A stretch of DNA of 64,000 nt. Origin: Shinella sp. SUS2. Its GTDB lineage: Bacteria > Pseudomonadota > Alphaproteobacteria > Rhizobiales > Rhizobiaceae. How positions within the stretch are numbered: position 1 is the stretch's first letter; every line of letters starts with the position of its first letter. The notes below the pieces were generated by a model, which saw only the letters and a list, made by a program, of their open reading frames with translations, searched no databases and was not told the origin of the DNA. Made by a program: the position numbers and the translations under genes. The stretch covers positions 320,848 to 384,847 of the forward strand of contig NZ_KQ410724.1 in NCBI RefSeq assembly GCF_001262505.1, read 5' to 3'. This document shows positions 8,613 to 62,418 of the stretch, one piece after another.

Positions 8613-8984
8613 ATGCCCAAGCAGGTGATGATTGTCGAGGACAACGAGCTCAACATGAAGCTCTTCCGGGATCTCATCGAGGCGTCCGGCTATACGACCA
8701 TCCAGACCCGGAATGGTATGGAAGCCCTTGATCTTGCCCGCAAACACCGCCCGGACCTGATCCTGATGGATATCCAGCTTCCCGAGGTCTCCGGCCTCGA
8801 AGTCACCAAGTGGCTGAAGGAAGACGACGAGCTGCATGTCATCCCGGTGATTGCCGTCACAGCCTTCGCGATGAAGGGCGACGAGGAGCGAATCCGCCAG
8901 GGCGGCTGCGAGGCCTATGTCTCCAAGCCGATCTCCGTTCCGAAATTCATCGAAACCATCAAAACCTATCTCGGCGACGCATGA
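8613..8984 (+). CDS. divK: Single-domain response regulator DivK
   Basis: 123 aa receiver domain ([14 protein letters not shown]...[12 protein letters not shown]...KPISV). SD AGGAA is upstream. pleD follows 16 nt downstream. Confidence 0.9.
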
Positions 8985-9000: not shown

Positions 9001-10368
9001 ATGACAGCGCGCATTCTCGTCGTCGACGACATTCCGGCAAACGTAAAGCTGCTCGAGGCGCGGCTGCTCGCGGAGTATTTCGACGTGCTGACGGCCGAGA
9101 ATGGCTATGATGCGCTTGCCATGTGCGAACGCACGCAGGTGGATCTCATCCTGCTCGACATCATGATGCCCGGCATCGATGGTTTCGAGGTCTGCGAACG
9201 GTTGAAGGCCAATCCGCGCACGGCCCATATCCCTGTTGTCATGGTGACGGCGCTCGACCAGCCCTCCGACCGCGTGCGCGGCCTCAAGGCCGGCGCCGAC
9301 GATTTTCTCACCAAGCCGGTCAACGACCTGCAACTCATGTCACGGGTGAAGAGCCTCGTGCGGCTGAAGACGTTGACGGACGAGCTGCGCATGCGCGCGG
9401 CCACCGCCCGCGCCATTTCCCTGGAGGAGGGGCTGGACAGCAATCTCGGCGACGAGCCGGGCGATATCCTCCTCGTCGATGGCCGCGCCAGCTCCCAGGA
9501 GCGCATCACCCGCGCGCTGAAGCCGATCGCCGAGGTCACCTCGATGTCCGATCCGCAGGCTGCACTCTTCCAGGCGGCCGAAAGCAATTTCGAGCTGGTG
9601 ATCGTCAACGCCAATTTCGAGGACTACGATCCGCTGCGCCTGTGCTCGCAGCTCCGCTCGCTGGAACGCACCCGCTTTCTGCCGATCCTGCTGATCGCGG
9701 AGCAGGGTGACGACGACATGGTGGTGCGCGCACTTGATCTCGGCGTCACGGACTATCTGATGCGGCCGATCGACCCGAACGAGCTGATCGCCCGCAGCCT
9801 CACCCAGATCCGCCGCAAGCGCTGCAACGACCGCCTGCGCGCCAGCGTGCGCCAGACGATCGAATTGGCCGTCACGGACGGCCTGACGGGTCTGCACAAC
9901 CGTCGCTATCTCGACAACCACATGAAGCTGCTGATCGACCGCGCGACGGCGCGGGGCCGGCCTCTGTCGGTCTGCATCACGGATATCGACCGCTTCAAGC
10001 TGGTCAACGACACCTATGGCCATGATGCCGGCGATGCGGTGCTGCGCGAATTCGCCAGCCGCGTGCGCTCGGCCGTGCGCGGCGCCGACCTTGCCTGCCG
10101 TTACGGCGGGGAGGAGTTCGTTCTGGTGATGCCGGATACCTCTGCCGACATGGCGGCAGGTGTCGCGGAGCGCCTCCGCACGATCGTCGAACGGGAACCG
10201 TTCCGCGTGCCCGGCACGGACGTCTTCCTGTCCATCACCGCTTCGCTCGGCCTTGCCAGTGCGCTGTCGGCCGGAGACAGTCCGGAAGCCCTGTTGAAGC
10301 GCGCCGATACCGCGCTTTATGAGGCGAAGCGCTCCGGCCGAAACCGGGTCGTGGCTGCCGCAGCGTGA
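9001..10368 (+). CDS. pleD: Response regulator PleD (REC-REC-GGDEF diguanylate cyclase)
   Basis: Two receiver domains followed by a GGDEF domain with an intact GGEEF site (RYGGEEFVLVMPD). GGAGG SD before the ATG at 9001. Confidence 0.92.
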   Translation: MTARILVVDDIPANVKLLEARLLAEYFDVLTAENGYDALAMCERTQVDLILLDIMMPGIDGFEVCERLKANPRTAHIPVVMVTALDQPSDRVRGLKAGADDFLTKPVNDLQLMSRVKSLVRLKTLTDELRMRAATARAISLEEGLDSNLGDEPGDILLVDGRASSQERITRALKPIAEVTSMSDPQAALFQAAESNFELVIVNANFEDYDPLRLCSQLRSLERTRFLPILLIAEQGDDDMVVRALDLGVTDYLMRPIDPNELIARSLTQIRRKRCNDRLRASVRQTIELAVTDGLTGLHNRRYLDNHMKLLIDRATARGRPLSVCITDIDRFKLVNDTYGHDAGDAVLREFASRVRSAVRGADLACRYGGEEFVLVMPDTSADMAAGVAERLRTIVEREPFRVPGTDVFLSITASLGLASALSAGDSPEALLKRADTALYEAKRSGRNRVVAAAA

Positions 10369-10928
10369 GGCGGCCGATTCGCCGCGAGGTTGTCCACAGG
10401 CGAATTCATATTTCGGGCATTTGACTTGGAAATCCGCAGGTTGCACGGTTCGTGCCGGTTGCTGACCGTACGTGAACCGTGTCGCCCCCGGAATCCGGTC
10501 ACGTGGTGAAAATTGGCTATAAGTCGTACTATTCGACTTTGGTGAAGCCTATCAATGGGTTGTATCGTGTATCGCCTTCCCGTACGTCAACCGGGTATTT
10601 TGCCATGGTTGCACATTTCTCTTGCTATGGTTGAAATTGATGTTGCCAACCATTGTTGCGATCCATGACGGAACCGCTGCTCAATGGCACACGTCTCCTC
10701 GGCGCGGTTAACTATGAGACAAGGCTCCGGCGGGGGAGCGTTAAGAATTCGTTGATTTTTTTTCTTTTTCGCGCGATGCTCAACTCATGCGCGGCAAACG
10801 AGGCCGCACAACCGGTTACCCCATGATGCTAGGTCCGCCGCATCTCCTGGGTCGTGGGGTCGGTCGGTCAGCTACGACAAATACGGAATCCTCGTGCCGT
10901 CGTCGTGTCTGACCGACCCCCATTCAAC

Positions 10929-10957
10929 GCCGCTCCCTCAGGGGAGCGGCGTTTTTG
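10929..10957 (+). terminator. Rho-independent terminator on the + strand inside the pleD-rpmG intergenic region
   Basis: Perfect 9-bp stem GCCGCTCCC/GGGAGCGGC with a 4-nt loop, then GTTTTT. No + strand CDS lies upstream within about 560 nt, which suggests an sRNA 3' end. Confidence 0.6.
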
Positions 10958-10977
10958 ATTCGGGGCAGGAGACACGA

Positions 10978-11022
10978 AGGCTGCCGACAAAAAGAAAAGG
11001 CGCCGGACGTTTCCGTCCAGCG
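10978..11022 (-). terminator. Putative rpmG terminator
   Basis: Hairpin GGCGCTGGACGGAAACGTCCGGCGCC followed by U-rich CUUUUCUUUUU (minus-strand sense), just downstream of the rpmG stop. Confidence 0.55.
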
Positions 11023-11050
11023 CCTTTGCGAACCGAAGCGGCTCCCAAGA

Positions 11051-11218
11051 TTACTTGATCTTGGTTTCCTTGAATTCGACGTGCTTCTTGACGACCGGGT
11101 CGTACTTCGTCTTGGTCATCTTGTCCGTCATCGTACGGCTGTTCTTCGTGGTCACGTAGAAGAAACCGGTGTCGGCCGTCGACAGCAGCTTGATCTTGAT
11201 GGTGGTAGCCTTGGCCAT
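11051..11218 (-). CDS. rpmG: 50S ribosomal protein L33
   Basis: 55 aa product [55 protein letters not shown]. It is below the ORF-track length cutoff and was found by manual translation. Confidence 0.92.
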
Positions 11219-23431: not shown

Positions 23432-25084
23432 ATGACTCGCGACAAGACGACCGAACAGAAACTCGCCGATCTCAACCAGCCGCCGCTCTGGTCGGGCATC
23501 AATGCCTATCGCTCCGACCCGCTGCTGGTCGATGCAACCGACGCCATGCCCAAGGGGCTGCGCGACGAGTTCGACGCGATCGGCCGCTACGTGACCTCGC
23601 CGGAAGCGCAGGAGCTCGCCCGCATGGCGAACGAGGGCGTGCCGCAGCTGCGCACCCACGGCCCGCGTGGCGAGCGCCTCGACGTCGTCGATTATCATCC
23701 CGCCTGGCACGCGTTGATGCGCCGCTCCATGGCGAGCGGCCTGCATTCCTCGCTCTGGGAGAATGTGCCGGAGGAGAAGGGCAGGGCGCACAAGGCGCGT
23801 GCCGTGCGCTTCTACCTGACCGCTCAGCTCGAATGTGGCCATCTCTGCCCGCTGACCATGACGAGCGCCTCGGTCGCGGCCCTGTCCGTCTCGCCGCAGG
23901 TGCAGCGCGAATGGGGCCGGAAGATCCTGTCGCGCAAATATGACAGCACGAACAAGCCCGCCATGCAGAAGAGTGCCGTCACCATCGGCATGGGCATGAC
24001 GGAAAAGCAGGGCGGCACGGATGTGCGCGCCAACACCTCCACCGCCGAGCGTGTCGGCGAGGGCATCTACCGGCTCTCCGGCCACAAATGGTTCATGTCG
24101 GCACCAATGAGCGACGGGTTCGTCATGCTCGCCCAGACCCGCGAGGGCGTCGGCTGTTTCCTCGTGCCGCGCCTGCTGGAGGACGGCTCCAGCAACGGCC
24201 TGCGCTTCCAGCGCCTGAAGGACAAGATCGGCAACCGCTCCAACGCCTCCTCGGAGGTCGAGTTCTCCGAAACGTTCGGCTTCCTGCTTGGCACGCCCGA
24301 TGCCGGCATCCGCACCATCCTCGACATGGTGACCCTGACGCGGCTTGACTGTGCGCTGGCCTCGTCCGGCATCATGCGCGCCTCGCTCGCCGAAGCGGTG
24401 CACCATACGCGCGGCCGCAGCGTCTTCGGCAAGCCGCTGGTCGCCCAGCCGATCATGACGCGCGTGCTCGCCGACATGGCGCTCGACGTTGCGGGCGCGA
24501 CCGCGCTCTCCCTGCGCCTGGCGGAGGCCTTCGACAAGGCGCGCGACAGCGCCGAGGACGCTGCCTACGCCCGTATCATGACGCCCGTGACGAAATACTG
24601 GTGCTGCAAGATCGCGCCCGCCCTGATCTACGAAGCGATGGAGTGCATCGGCGGCAGCGGCTATGTCGAGGAGCGGCCGATCGCGCGGCATTATCGCGAG
24701 GCGCCCGTCAATGCGATCTGGGAAGGCTCGGGCAACGTCATGGCGCTCGATCTGATGCGCGTCACCAGCCGGGGCAGGGACCTGTTCGAGATGCTGTTTG
24801 CCGGGCTTGCCCGCGATCTCGGTCCGGCTGGCAAGAAGACGGTCGACGTGCTGCGTGCTGCGCTCTCGCTCTGCGAGCGCGACGAGGGAGCGGCCCGCAT
24901 GCTCGTGGAGCAGCTGGCGCTCGCCGCTGCCGCGGCCGAACTCTATCGCGCCGGTGCCGGGCGCATCGCCGATGCCTTCCTCGAAACGCGCCTCGCCTCG
25001 GGCTGGCGCTCGACCTACGGCATGCTCGATTCGCGCTTCGATTCGGCCTACATCGTCGACCTGCTCTATCCGCCGGCAAGATAG
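23432..25084 (+). CDS. Acyl-CoA dehydrogenase family protein, AidB-like
   Basis: 550 aa with an AidB-like N-terminal extension and an ACAD C-terminal domain ([20 protein letters not shown]). Confidence 0.8.
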
Positions 25085-26001
25085 GCGGTTGCCGCCAATA
25101 CGACCGGGATCGTGAAGAACGAGGCGATCGTTTGCAGCGTGGCGACGGCGGCATAGAGCGGCGCGTCGCCGCCCATCTGCTTGGCCAGCACGTAACCGTT
25201 CATCGCTGTCGGCACGCTCGCCCCCATGGCGATCGTCAGGAGCGGCTCGCCGCGCATGCCGAGCGCATAGGCCGCCGCCGTCATGACCAGCGGCATGAAC
25301 AGGAGCTTCAGGGCGACCGGCAGCAGCGCCAGCGGCCGGGGTTTCAGCGCATCGGCCAGCTTCAGTCCGGCGCCGACCATGATGAGGCCAAGGCTGAGCG
25401 AGGTGTCCGCGACGAGTTCCGTCGCCTGCATCAGCGGCGCGTAGATCGGGATTTCCAGAAGGTTGACGGCGACACCGAGCACCGAGCCGATGATCATCGG
25501 GTTGGTGACGATTTTCTGGGCGAAGGTCTTCAGGCTGCGCGTGCCGCCGCCGAACCAGACGAGAACGGCGATATTGTAGAAATTCAGGGGAATGATGATC
25601 AGTGTCGCCACGAGGGCGACGAGGGCAAGGCTGCCCGGGCCGTAAAGTTTTTCACCGATGGCGAGTGCGATGAAGGCGTTCCAGCGTGTCGAGGTCTGGA
25701 AAACCGAAGTAAACGACGCGCCTGAAACCTGCGCGGCGCGAAAAAGCGGCCAGGAGAGCGCCAGAATCGCTGCGATGAGCGTCACCGAGCCGATGGAGCC
25801 GAGCGCCACGCTGCCGGCGGCAATGCCCGAGAATTCCGCCTTGGCGAGCGTCGTGAAGAGCAGGCAGGGAAACAGCACGAAGAAGCCGAGCTGCTCGAGC
25901 CCGTTCCACATGTCGCGGTCGATCAGCCGCCAGCGCTTGAGGAAGACCCCGAGCACAACGAGCAGGAAGACGGGGAGAATGCTTTCGAAGATGGCGAGCA
26001 T
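25066..26001 (-). CDS. AEC (auxin efflux carrier) family transporter
   Basis: 311 aa, roughly 10 TM segments, AEC-like composition. Its 3' end overlaps the AidB-like gene by 19 nt (convergent). Confidence 0.75.
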
Positions 26002-26337
26002 GGGAACCGGGCGGGCGAGGAATGGTGGCTGCTCATTCCACGCCTTGCGCAGGCTTGCAAGCCTGCGCTGCCGTGCGGCCCGTGTGGAAATTAACCTTAA
26101 TGGAGGGTTTACGTTGCGTGCACAGAGTTAACGGGCGAAGGTTCCGTTTACCTGGTGTTAACCATGCGAGCGAGTGCAGCCTATGGCCAGAACGGCCCGG
26201 ATTTCGGTCATGACGACCCTGTTTTGTTTTGCGGCGGTGGATATCGTCGTCCCGCTCCTCGTCATCGCCACGGGCGTGGCGGTCAGCGAGATCGTCTTTG
26301 CAACCGGCGATCTTCTCGCGCCGAAGAGGAGGGTGGC

Positions 26338-30840: not shown

Positions 30841-30914
30841 GCGGACCTAGCTCAGCGGTAGAGCACCGGATGTTCCTCCGGAGGTCGCGGGTTCGATTCC
30901 CGTTGTCTGCTCCA
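30841..30914 (+). tRNA. tRNA-like gene with an anomalous 6-nt anticodon loop (TGTTCC), G3:U70 and a C7.U66 mismatch; identity ambiguous, possibly a pseudo-tRNA
   Basis: Clear D arm (GCTCAGCGGTAGAGC). T arm identical to the genuine tRNA-Gly at 58967. 3' CCA present. The anticodon stem CCGGA/TCCGG leaves only 6 loop nucleotides. Confidence 0.5.
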
Positions 30915-30984
30915 TTGGATAGCTCAGTGGTAGAGCATCAGATTGTTACTCTGACTGTGGAAGGTTCGAATCCTTCTCCAAAGC
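30913..30984 (+). tRNA. tRNA-Asn(GTT)-like element lacking an encoded CCA, with an A2.A71 mismatch; it overlaps the upstream tRNA-like gene by 2 nt
   Basis: D arm GCTCAGTGGTAGAGC. Anticodon stem TCAGA/TCTGA with loop TTGTTAC. T arm GAAGG-TTCGAAT-CCTTC. Acceptor CATTGGA/TCCAAAG. Confidence 0.45.
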
Positions 30985-55781: not shown

Positions 55782-55857
<76 letters not shown>

Positions 55858-58856: not shown

Positions 58857-58941
58857 GGAGGGATGCCCGAGTGGTTAAAGGGGACGGACTGTAAATCCGT
58901 TGGCTCAGCCTACGTTGGTTCAAATCCAACTCCCTCCACCA
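58857..58941 (+). tRNA. tRNA-Tyr(GTA)
   Basis: Acceptor GGAGGGA/TCCCTCC, anticodon loop CTGTAAA, long variable arm, ACCA 3' end. Confidence 0.9.
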
Positions 58942-58966
58942 TTGCGTTGCACGGATCAAGACCCCC

Positions 58967-59040
58967 GCGGGTATAGCTCAATGGTAGAGCAGCAGCCTTC
59001 CAAGCTGAATACGCGGGTTCGATTCCCGCTACCCGCTCCA
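58967..59040 (+). tRNA. tRNA-Gly(TCC)
   Basis: Acceptor GCGGGTA/TACCCGC, anticodon loop CTTCCAA, T arm GCGGGTTCGATTCCCGC, CCA end. Confidence 0.9.

Positions 59041-62342: not shown

Positions 62343-62418
<76 letters not shown>

Follow-up and report, generated by a model that had tools for sequence, protein, structure and literature searches.

A probable EcpR1 small RNA gene between pleD and rpmG of Shinella sp. SUS2, with a CtrA-like promoter architecture

We analysed a 64-kb stretch of the Shinella sp. SUS2 genome (contig NZ_KQ410724.1), which we call the window and whose positions are used throughout, and in particular the 680 nucleotides (nt) located between pleD and rpmG (positions 10369-11050). 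An initial annotation, made by eye from the sequence, had proposed that this intergenic region encodes a small RNA (sRNA). Our analyses indicate that positions 10785-10955 of the plus strand are very probably the gene for EcpR1, a trans-acting sRNA of the Rhizobiales, present at its canonical site downstream of divK-pleD and convergent with rpmG. EcpR1 is a described and experimentally characterised family, and the RNA of the window is already known rather than a new candidate. The coordinates of all features are given in Table 1.

An RF02500 match with covariation across homologues

The whole window was scanned against Rfam 15, a check that the initial annotation had itself suggested. Apart from tRNAs, a single match exceeded its gathering score: RF02500 (Atu_C6/EcpR1), at positions 10816-10923 of the plus strand, with a score of 81.8 bits (gathering score, 60) and an E value of 7e-10. 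The match runs end to end, covering positions 1-113 of the 113 positions of the model. This full-length match, together with the other family features that can be tested on a sequence, bears out the sRNA proposal; judged at that level, the locus has all the features of the EcpR1 family.

Conservation in relatives, on which the proposal had been made to depend, is also evident. The 19-mer at loop 1, the loop of the first stem-loop (SL1), was found in at least 120 genomes at the species level, almost all of them from Hyphomicrobiales. In tblastn analyses with PleD and RpmG of the window, nearly every one of the 120 loci having enough flanking sequence showed pleD (+) on the upstream and rpmG (-) on the downstream side. 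Positions 10704-10965 are almost invariant in the four graded relatives that were aligned to the window, which are L125 and L121 (~98% identity), L128 (~83%) and L017 (~80%). L017, a metagenome-assembled genome (MAG) of Shinella sp. whose PleD is 90% identical, is the closest labelled relative.

When 50 diverse homologues were aligned with MAFFT alone, the outer arms of SL1 fell out of register, and a covariance-model alignment was used instead. The model, R1, was built from 14 well-aligned sequences and searched against 100 sources. It matched in 98 of these, nearly always over its full length, the exceptions being an Acidobacteriota MAG and one Hyphomicrobiaceae locus, and it gave a single match in the window (10815-10927, 110.5 bits). 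In the alignment of 99 sequences, 97.0% of the cells were paired, versus 32-56% when the 3' partners were slid by 1-3 columns. Compensatory changes, i.e., changes on both sides of a pair, were found in 24 of the 29 pairs, and none of 500 shuffles reached any of the five measures used. They affect all nine pairs of the SL1 outer stem and, in the second stem-loop (SL2), 10 of the 11 outer-stem pairs and all three inner-stem pairs. On these alignments, the stems of SL1 and SL2 are maintained by compensatory substitutions in about 100 species.

Two observations were made at the edges of this distribution. In the Acidobacteriota MAG (L023), the loop-1 19-mer is not accompanied by the EcpR1 structure and probably matches by chance. 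In loci L086, L117 and L044, from Rhodomicrobium and a Hyphomicrobiaceae genome, SL1 is present and is followed by sequence unlike the usual SL2, and the model match is weak or lacking.

The predicted ecpR1 transcript and its promoter

In Sinorhizobium meliloti, EcpR1 is found in forms of 171, 142 and, dominantly, 101 nt, which contain two stem-loops and a Rho-independent terminator, and the 21-nt segment C16-G36 has been described as identical in all homologues (PMC4414408). An exact copy of this invariant SL1 segment is present at positions 10829-10849 of the window, and from its position the 5' ends are calculated as 10814 (processed) and 10785 (primary). By homology, the two ends are placed near 10814 and near 10785-10787, respectively. 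Counted from 10814 and 10785, respectively, lengths of 142 and 171 nt lead to one and the same 3' end, 10955, within the T-run of the terminator. Of the 680 nt to which the initial annotation had pointed, the sRNA would occupy about 170 (10785-10955), with the AT-rich 5' half lying outside it.

The RNA, folded as a 174-nt sequence, forms a leader hairpin, SL1, SL2 and a terminator hairpin (-88.8 kcal/mol, z = -5.4), and none of 200 shuffles folded equally well. The GC-rich loop UCCGCCGCAUCU is unpaired in the minimum free energy and the centroid structures of both the 174-nt and the 101-nt forms. The terminator had been picked out in the initial annotation as a plus-strand signal without an upstream coding sequence, and we recovered it as a stem of 12 base pairs (bp), 9 of them GC pairs, at positions 10926-10953 followed by TTTTT. 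It is kept in L017 and L128, where changes in the stem are compensated. The long-range stem that had also been pointed out corresponds to the 10-bp pairing of GGTCGGTCAG (10862-10871) with CTGACCGACC (10909-10918) in SL2; the enclosed sequence, however, had been taken for a plain loop, and its 37 nt form an inner helix and a UCCUCG loop.

The leader, which spans the 30-71 nt from the presumed start site to SL1, forms a hairpin in 29 of the 29 loci folded, with sequences that are unrelated and a mean z of -1.8. It lies outside the Rfam model, and the S. meliloti "sigma-54-like motif" sits inside the hairpin. The leader hairpin may be a determinant of 5' processing.

The S. meliloti gene is transcribed from a sigma-70 promoter, ATTGAT-N17-CAATGC, and its RNA has two 5' ends 29 nt apart (PMC4414408). 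The corresponding sequence of the window, GTTGAT-N17-CGATGC, differs from it at 2 of the 12 hexamer positions and has the same spacing of 17 nt. It is near-invariant in close relatives, whereas the sequence further upstream diverges. The ecpR1 gene is predicted to have its own sigma-70-type promoter at positions 10751-10779, and positions 10704-10784 constitute the promoter and upstream control region, outside the RNA. The initial annotation had looked for promoter elements further upstream, at TTGACT (10422-10427) and CTATAA (10517-10522). Both hexamers are present, but 90 nt separate them and TTGACT is not kept in relatives, and we reject them as a promoter pair in favour of the promoter at 10751-10779. 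We also reject the second T-rich hairpin, which had been placed at positions 10735-10780: its z value is -0.05, 87 of 200 shuffles fold equally well, and the T-run forms the spacer of the sRNA promoter, from the -35 to the -10.

The locus closely resembles that of S. meliloti EcpR1 (also named SmelC291, SmrC10 or Sra33), which is located at the same divK-pleD/rpmG site and on the pleD strand. The two share the identical 21-nt SL1 segment with the target-pairing loop, an SL2 with UCCUCG, a promoter of the form xTTGAT-N17-CxATGC, a terminator that fits the 171-, 142- and 101-nt forms and a leader hairpin preceding SL1. They differ in the sequences of the SL2 stem and the leader, in which pairing is kept, and in the spacer between pleD and the sRNA, which is ~160 nt longer in the window. 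In addition, the leader of the window lacks the sequence that was read in S. meliloti as a sigma-54-like motif, which supports the conclusion of the S. meliloti authors that this motif is non-functional. Atu_C6 of Agrobacterium tumefaciens, the member that gave RF02500 its name and is known mainly from transcriptome catalogues, belongs to the same family and has the same two-stem architecture, the likeness being drawn from the end-to-end model match.

Table 1. Features of the divK-rpmG locus of the window
Feature	Positions	Strand	Remarks
divK	8613-8984	+	single-domain response regulator, 123 amino acids (aa); first gene of the divK-pleD operon; Response_reg called in L130
pleD	9001-10368	+	455 aa; two receiver domains and GGDEF; PF00072 and PF00990 called in L130, L125 and L121
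Variable spacer	10369-10703	.	AT-richer, between pleD and the ecpR1 promoter region; short conserved islands only
DnaA-like island TTGTCCACA	10390-10398	+	just after the pleD stop; 8/9 match to TTATCCACA; conserved in L125, L121, L128 and L017
IHF-like island TATCAATGGGTTG (also written TATCAAnGGGTTG)	10550-10562	+	sole match to WATCAANNNNTTR in 64 kb
CtrA-like half-site TTAACTAT	10708-10715	+	7/8 match to TTAACCAT; about -77 of the inferred start; next TTAA exactly 33 nt downstream
CtrA-like box TCAACGAATTCTTAAC (TCAA-N7-TTAAC)	10740-10755	-	one mismatch from TTAA-N7-TTAAC; overlaps the -35
-35 GTTGAT	10751-10756	+	conserved; matches the S. meliloti ATTGAT layout (PMC4414408)
-10 CGATGC	10774-10779	+	17 nt after the -35; 6 nt before the inferred 5' end at 10785
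ecpR1 full-length transcript	10785-10955	+	ends placed by homology; RF02500 81.8 bits; own model R1 110.5 bits
Leader hairpin	10788-10810	+	from the fold; absent from the dominant processed form
SL1	10818-10860	+	12-nt loop UCCGCCGCAUCU (10834-10845), the target-pairing seed
SL2	10862-10918	+	long-range stem of the initial annotation; UCCUCG (10889-10894) in the apical loop
ecpR1 Rho-independent terminator	10926-10958	+	12-bp stem, 4-nt loop, TTTTT
rpmG Rho-independent terminator	10986-11027	-	14-bp stem with 9 GC pairs, T-rich tail; convergent with the ecpR1 terminator
rpmG	11051-11218	-	ribosomal protein L33, 55 aa; PF00471 (Ribosomal_L33)

The AT-rich spacer, alternative readings and flanking genes

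The 5' part of the intergenic region is AT-richer than its surroundings, as the initial annotation had remarked, with a GC content of 0.47-0.52 over positions 10400-10800 against 0.61-0.69 in the flanks. Up to position 10703 this sequence is only 60-70% identical to L017 and L128, with frequent insertions and deletions, and it cannot be aligned to other genera. The distance from pleD to the sRNA is 464 nt in the window and 482 nt in L017, ~300 nt in Ensifer, 514-622 nt in Rhizobium and Neorhizobium, and 130-350 nt in most other families. The AT-rich part is best described as a fast-evolving, lineage-variable spacer outside the RNA. No significant RNA structure was detected in positions 10400-10720 (fold z of -1.75 on the plus and -0.87 on the minus strand); a second structured RNA in this interval was rejected because the fold z values are unremarkable and no Rfam match was better than E 0.18. 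A repeat or mobile element was rejected as well, since no second copy of the spacer was found in the 64-kb window.

Some short islands that are conserved within the genus stand out in the spacer, and all of them are post hoc observations. The DnaA-box consensus is TTATCCACA, and a near match directly follows the pleD stop; three further Rhizobiaceae loci (L123, L124 and L127) have similar sequences, (T/C)TGTCCACA or TTTCCACA, directly behind their pleD stop. Across the family, DnaA-like boxes are present in 10 of the 121 loci at scattered positions, and the enrichment is weak. The core consensus of integration host factor (IHF) is WATCAANNNNTTR, for which one match was obtained against 0.37 expected per window; L128 and L017 keep this match, the variable base being an N position of the consensus. 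The sequence GGTTG is present eight times (six on the plus strand) in the 264 nt from 10388 to 10651, versus ~0.5 expected from its window-wide density, and several copies are conserved in L128 and L017. A promoter-like sequence, TTGATA-N16-AATAGT, is located on the minus strand (10555-10528) and points to the 3' end of pleD. Both of its hexamers are conserved in L017, the -10 is lost in L128, the TTGATA is part of the IHF-like island, and neither a terminator nor an open reading frame (ORF) is present downstream; a minus-strand promoter here is unlikely. Finally, an inverted repeat of ~11-12 bp, CACGGTTCGTG ... CGTGAACCGTG (10445-10483), is kept in neither L128 nor L017 and lacks a T-run behind it.

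The conserved block might be read differently, as the structured 3' untranslated region (UTR) and terminator of the divK-pleD operon, in which case any small RNA would be a product of mRNA processing. No plus-strand intrinsic terminator is predicted between the pleD stop (10368) and 10926, so that read-through from the operon could end there. However, a promoter of validated architecture is present at 10751-10779, and its conservation exceeds that of the 335 nt lying between it and pleD. Moreover, the pleD-to-sRNA distance varies from ~130 to ~620 nt among genomes, whereas that between the promoter and the sRNA is fixed within clades, and in S. meliloti a mutation of the -10 abolishes EcpR1, which is seen on Northern blots as a transcription unit of its own (PMC4414408). 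We therefore regard the 3' UTR explanation as very unlikely. Even less probable is that the region acts by encoding a small protein, either from the 41-aa ORF at 10787-10912 or from one of the 37-57-aa ORFs of the AT-rich part, instead of a non-coding RNA. As the initial annotation had reported, no ORF of at least 60 aa lies wholly within positions 10369-11050; the largest has 57 aa (10653-10826), and longer ones merely extend into the region from antisense pleD or from rpmG. Several ORFs of 25-57 aa exist, and those overlapping the conserved block show tblastn "similarity" to relatives, but this follows from nucleotide identity, and the substitutions across the family keep base pairs and not codons. 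In addition, the ATG at 10787 belongs to the leader, and the leaders of other genera have unrelated sequences, and SL2 varies in length by steps that are not multiples of three. In the spacer no ORF is conserved in the relatives L128 and L017, and small proteins were rejected there because of lost start codons and frameshifts; the best candidate (10555) has lost its ATG and is frameshifted in both.

The spacer could also be a replication origin or an origin-like element, with the sRNA being incidental. Its AT-richness, the island TTGTCCACA, the sole IHF-consensus match in 64 kb and the CtrA-like boxes would fit such an element, and the Caulobacter sRNA gene ccnA is indeed located inside the origin (PMC8959179). 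Against this, the cumulative GC skew climbs smoothly through the region, and a replication origin was rejected because no inflection is seen; furthermore, the DnaA-like boxes are few and their positions are not conserved across the family, and conservation of the spacer is poor even among members of the genus. Of the alternatives considered we find this one the least credible, its probability being close to nil.

Identification of the block as ecpR1 is itself weakened by several points. The pairs were counted in a model-fitted alignment, which is biased towards pairing. Compensatory pairs are, however, already visible in the unfitted MAFFT alignments, and the conclusion on structure is safe because of these pairs and the size of the effect. 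The targets known from S. meliloti, gcrA and dnaA, are located outside the window, and the near-complements of the loop elsewhere in the window (3 versus 1.2 expected) carry no target information. SL2 contains AAUCCUCG instead of the commoner GCCUCCUCG context, which is within the variation of the family. For the Shinella window, finally, an ecpR1 transcript, the ends of this RNA and inducible expression are predicted from homology.

Gene calls for the flanks (Pfam) were taken from a locus that is 100% identical to the window over 5.9 kb (L130; assembly GCA_001267455.1, contig KQ434081.1). The mechanically defined pleD ORF encodes 483 aa and starts at 8917, 84 nt 5' of the start called in relatives. 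Because PleD has 455-458 aa in all called relatives and an exact-protein look-up found no record of the 483-aa product, translation probably starts from the ATG at 9001. The RpmG protein has an exact match in 616 blocks of the sequence collection, and the rpmG terminator is nearly invariant among relatives. Elsewhere in the window, the Rfam scan detected six tRNA genes, including two tandem pairs (30841-30984, 55785-55857, 58857-59037 and 62343-62415).

Known biology of EcpR1 and a possible link to CtrA

In S. meliloti, EcpR1 represses the gcrA and dnaA mRNAs and slows the cell cycle under stress (Robledo 2015; PMC4414408). Stationary phase and stress induce it, in part via ppGpp (PMC4414408), and its overexpression causes the same cell-cycle phenotype (elongation, DNA content) in Sinorhizobium, Rhizobium and Agrobacterium species. 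The function is likely to be conserved in the organism of the window, because the SL1 seed matches, at every position, the one validated by mutation in S. meliloti and because S. meliloti EcpR1 is active across genera. By analogy with S. meliloti, transcription would rise in stationary phase and under stress, partly via ppGpp, and the primary transcript of ~171 nt would be processed to a dominant form of ~101 nt holding SL1 and SL2. The SL1 loop would then pair with the gcrA 5' UTR, chiefly inhibiting translation, and with the region of the ribosome binding site and start codon of dnaA, leading to RNase E-dependent decay. In S. meliloti the paired sites are at -109 to -95 of gcrA and around the ribosome binding site and start codon of dnaA. 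The action of the RNA would be independent of Hfq, and its outcome would be a slower cell cycle.

Two other sRNAs of alphaproteobacterial cell-cycle control can be compared with EcpR1. CcnA of Caulobacter crescentus (PMC8959179) likewise acts on mRNAs of cell-cycle master regulators and represses gcrA via its 5' UTR. However, it belongs to another family without sequence or structural homology to EcpR1, its gene lies inside the replication origin, it also activates ctrA, and it is driven by the cell cycle whereas EcpR1 is driven by stress. GspR (SmelC775) of Sinorhizobium (PMC5928217) is also a trans-acting sRNA of stress and stationary phase with a stem-loop seed, and it targets the ctrA mRNA; it differs from EcpR1 in its unrelated sequence, its restriction to Sinorhizobium, its locus and its targets.

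The region upstream of ecpR1 contains sequences that resemble binding sites of CtrA, for which the consensus is TTAA-N7-TTAAC (full site) or TTAACCAT (half-site) (PMC3692519). We aligned 28 non-redundant loci of Rhizobiaceae and Phyllobacteriaceae anchored on the -35, which revealed three conserved blocks with free sequence in between: TT(A/T)ACC(A/T)T, then gTTAAGAAa..GTTGATTTT exactly 33 nt downstream, and the -10-like ttGcGCaA. The first block is the half-site, which is the exact TTAACCAT in Rhizobium, Neorhizobium and Ensifer, and TTAACTAT in the window. The second is a near-consensus CtrA box that overlaps the -35 (GTTAA-N7-TTGA), and the 33 nt amount to three helical turns. An exact TTAA-N7-TTGAT is found at a fixed position in 39 of the 121 homologous loci, where the background frequency is 0.001 per 183 nt. 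TTAA occurs 19 times in the 64-kb window, and two of these occurrences are at -77 and -44 of the presumed ecpR1 start. A near-consensus full CtrA box was found at only two loci in the 64 kb, namely the ecpR1 promoter and a cluster at 26091-26165. This cluster, consisting of TTAACCTT, TTAATGGAGGGTTTAC, TTTACCTGGTGTTAAC and an exact TTAACCAT, is located in a divergent intergenic region flanked by a minus-strand membrane-protein gene (25066-26001) and a plus-strand ORF for a small membrane protein, and is likely to be a strong CtrA-bound promoter region.

Published data from S. meliloti bear on the same site. A CtrA peak obtained by chromatin immunoprecipitation sequencing (ChIP-seq) is located at position 1411567, between SMc01370 (pleD) and SMc01369 (rpmG) (Pini 2015, Table S4; PMC4433202), and was left unassigned because both flanking genes were flagged as wrongly oriented (PMC4433202). 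According to a 2020 review, EcpR1 is encoded at 1411678-1411848 (+), so that the peak lies ~111 nt upstream of the ecpR1 start. As just 198 peaks were reported in 6.7 Mb, with fragments of ~300 bp (PMC4433202), a coincidence by chance is unlikely. On the other hand, neither site of the window is a perfect match to the consensus, TTGAT may be conserved simply as the -35, and, as a weak argument against CtrA control, overproduction of DivK or PleD left the activity of a PecpR1 reporter unchanged; no probe for the sRNA was found in the CtrA-depletion expression data consulted. Taking both sides together, ecpR1 may be a direct CtrA target, a proposal that we make tentatively and hold at somewhat less than an even chance. 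A link between EcpR1 and CtrA binding was not found in the consulted papers that mention EcpR1, and the CtrA-type architecture of the promoter is a lead that appears to be new.

What the finding shows is that reading the sequence by eye recovered a curated sRNA gene, which any Rfam-based annotation would label likewise; with it, a family already known across Hyphomicrobiales gains a further genome, closest to Shinella. Transcriptional control of EcpR1 has so far been described just in terms of sigma-70 and ppGpp. The CtrA-type architecture together with the orphan ChIP-seq peak constitutes a directly testable hypothesis that is possibly new to specialists. If it is true, CtrA would activate EcpR1 in a loop in which EcpR1 represses gcrA and dnaA, making EcpR1 a functional analogue of Caulobacter CcnA, and accumulation of CtrA could explain part of the induction by ppGpp and in stationary phase. 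Stress signalling and the CtrA/GcrA/DnaA circuit of rhizobia would then be joined through EcpR1, in parallel to CcnA.

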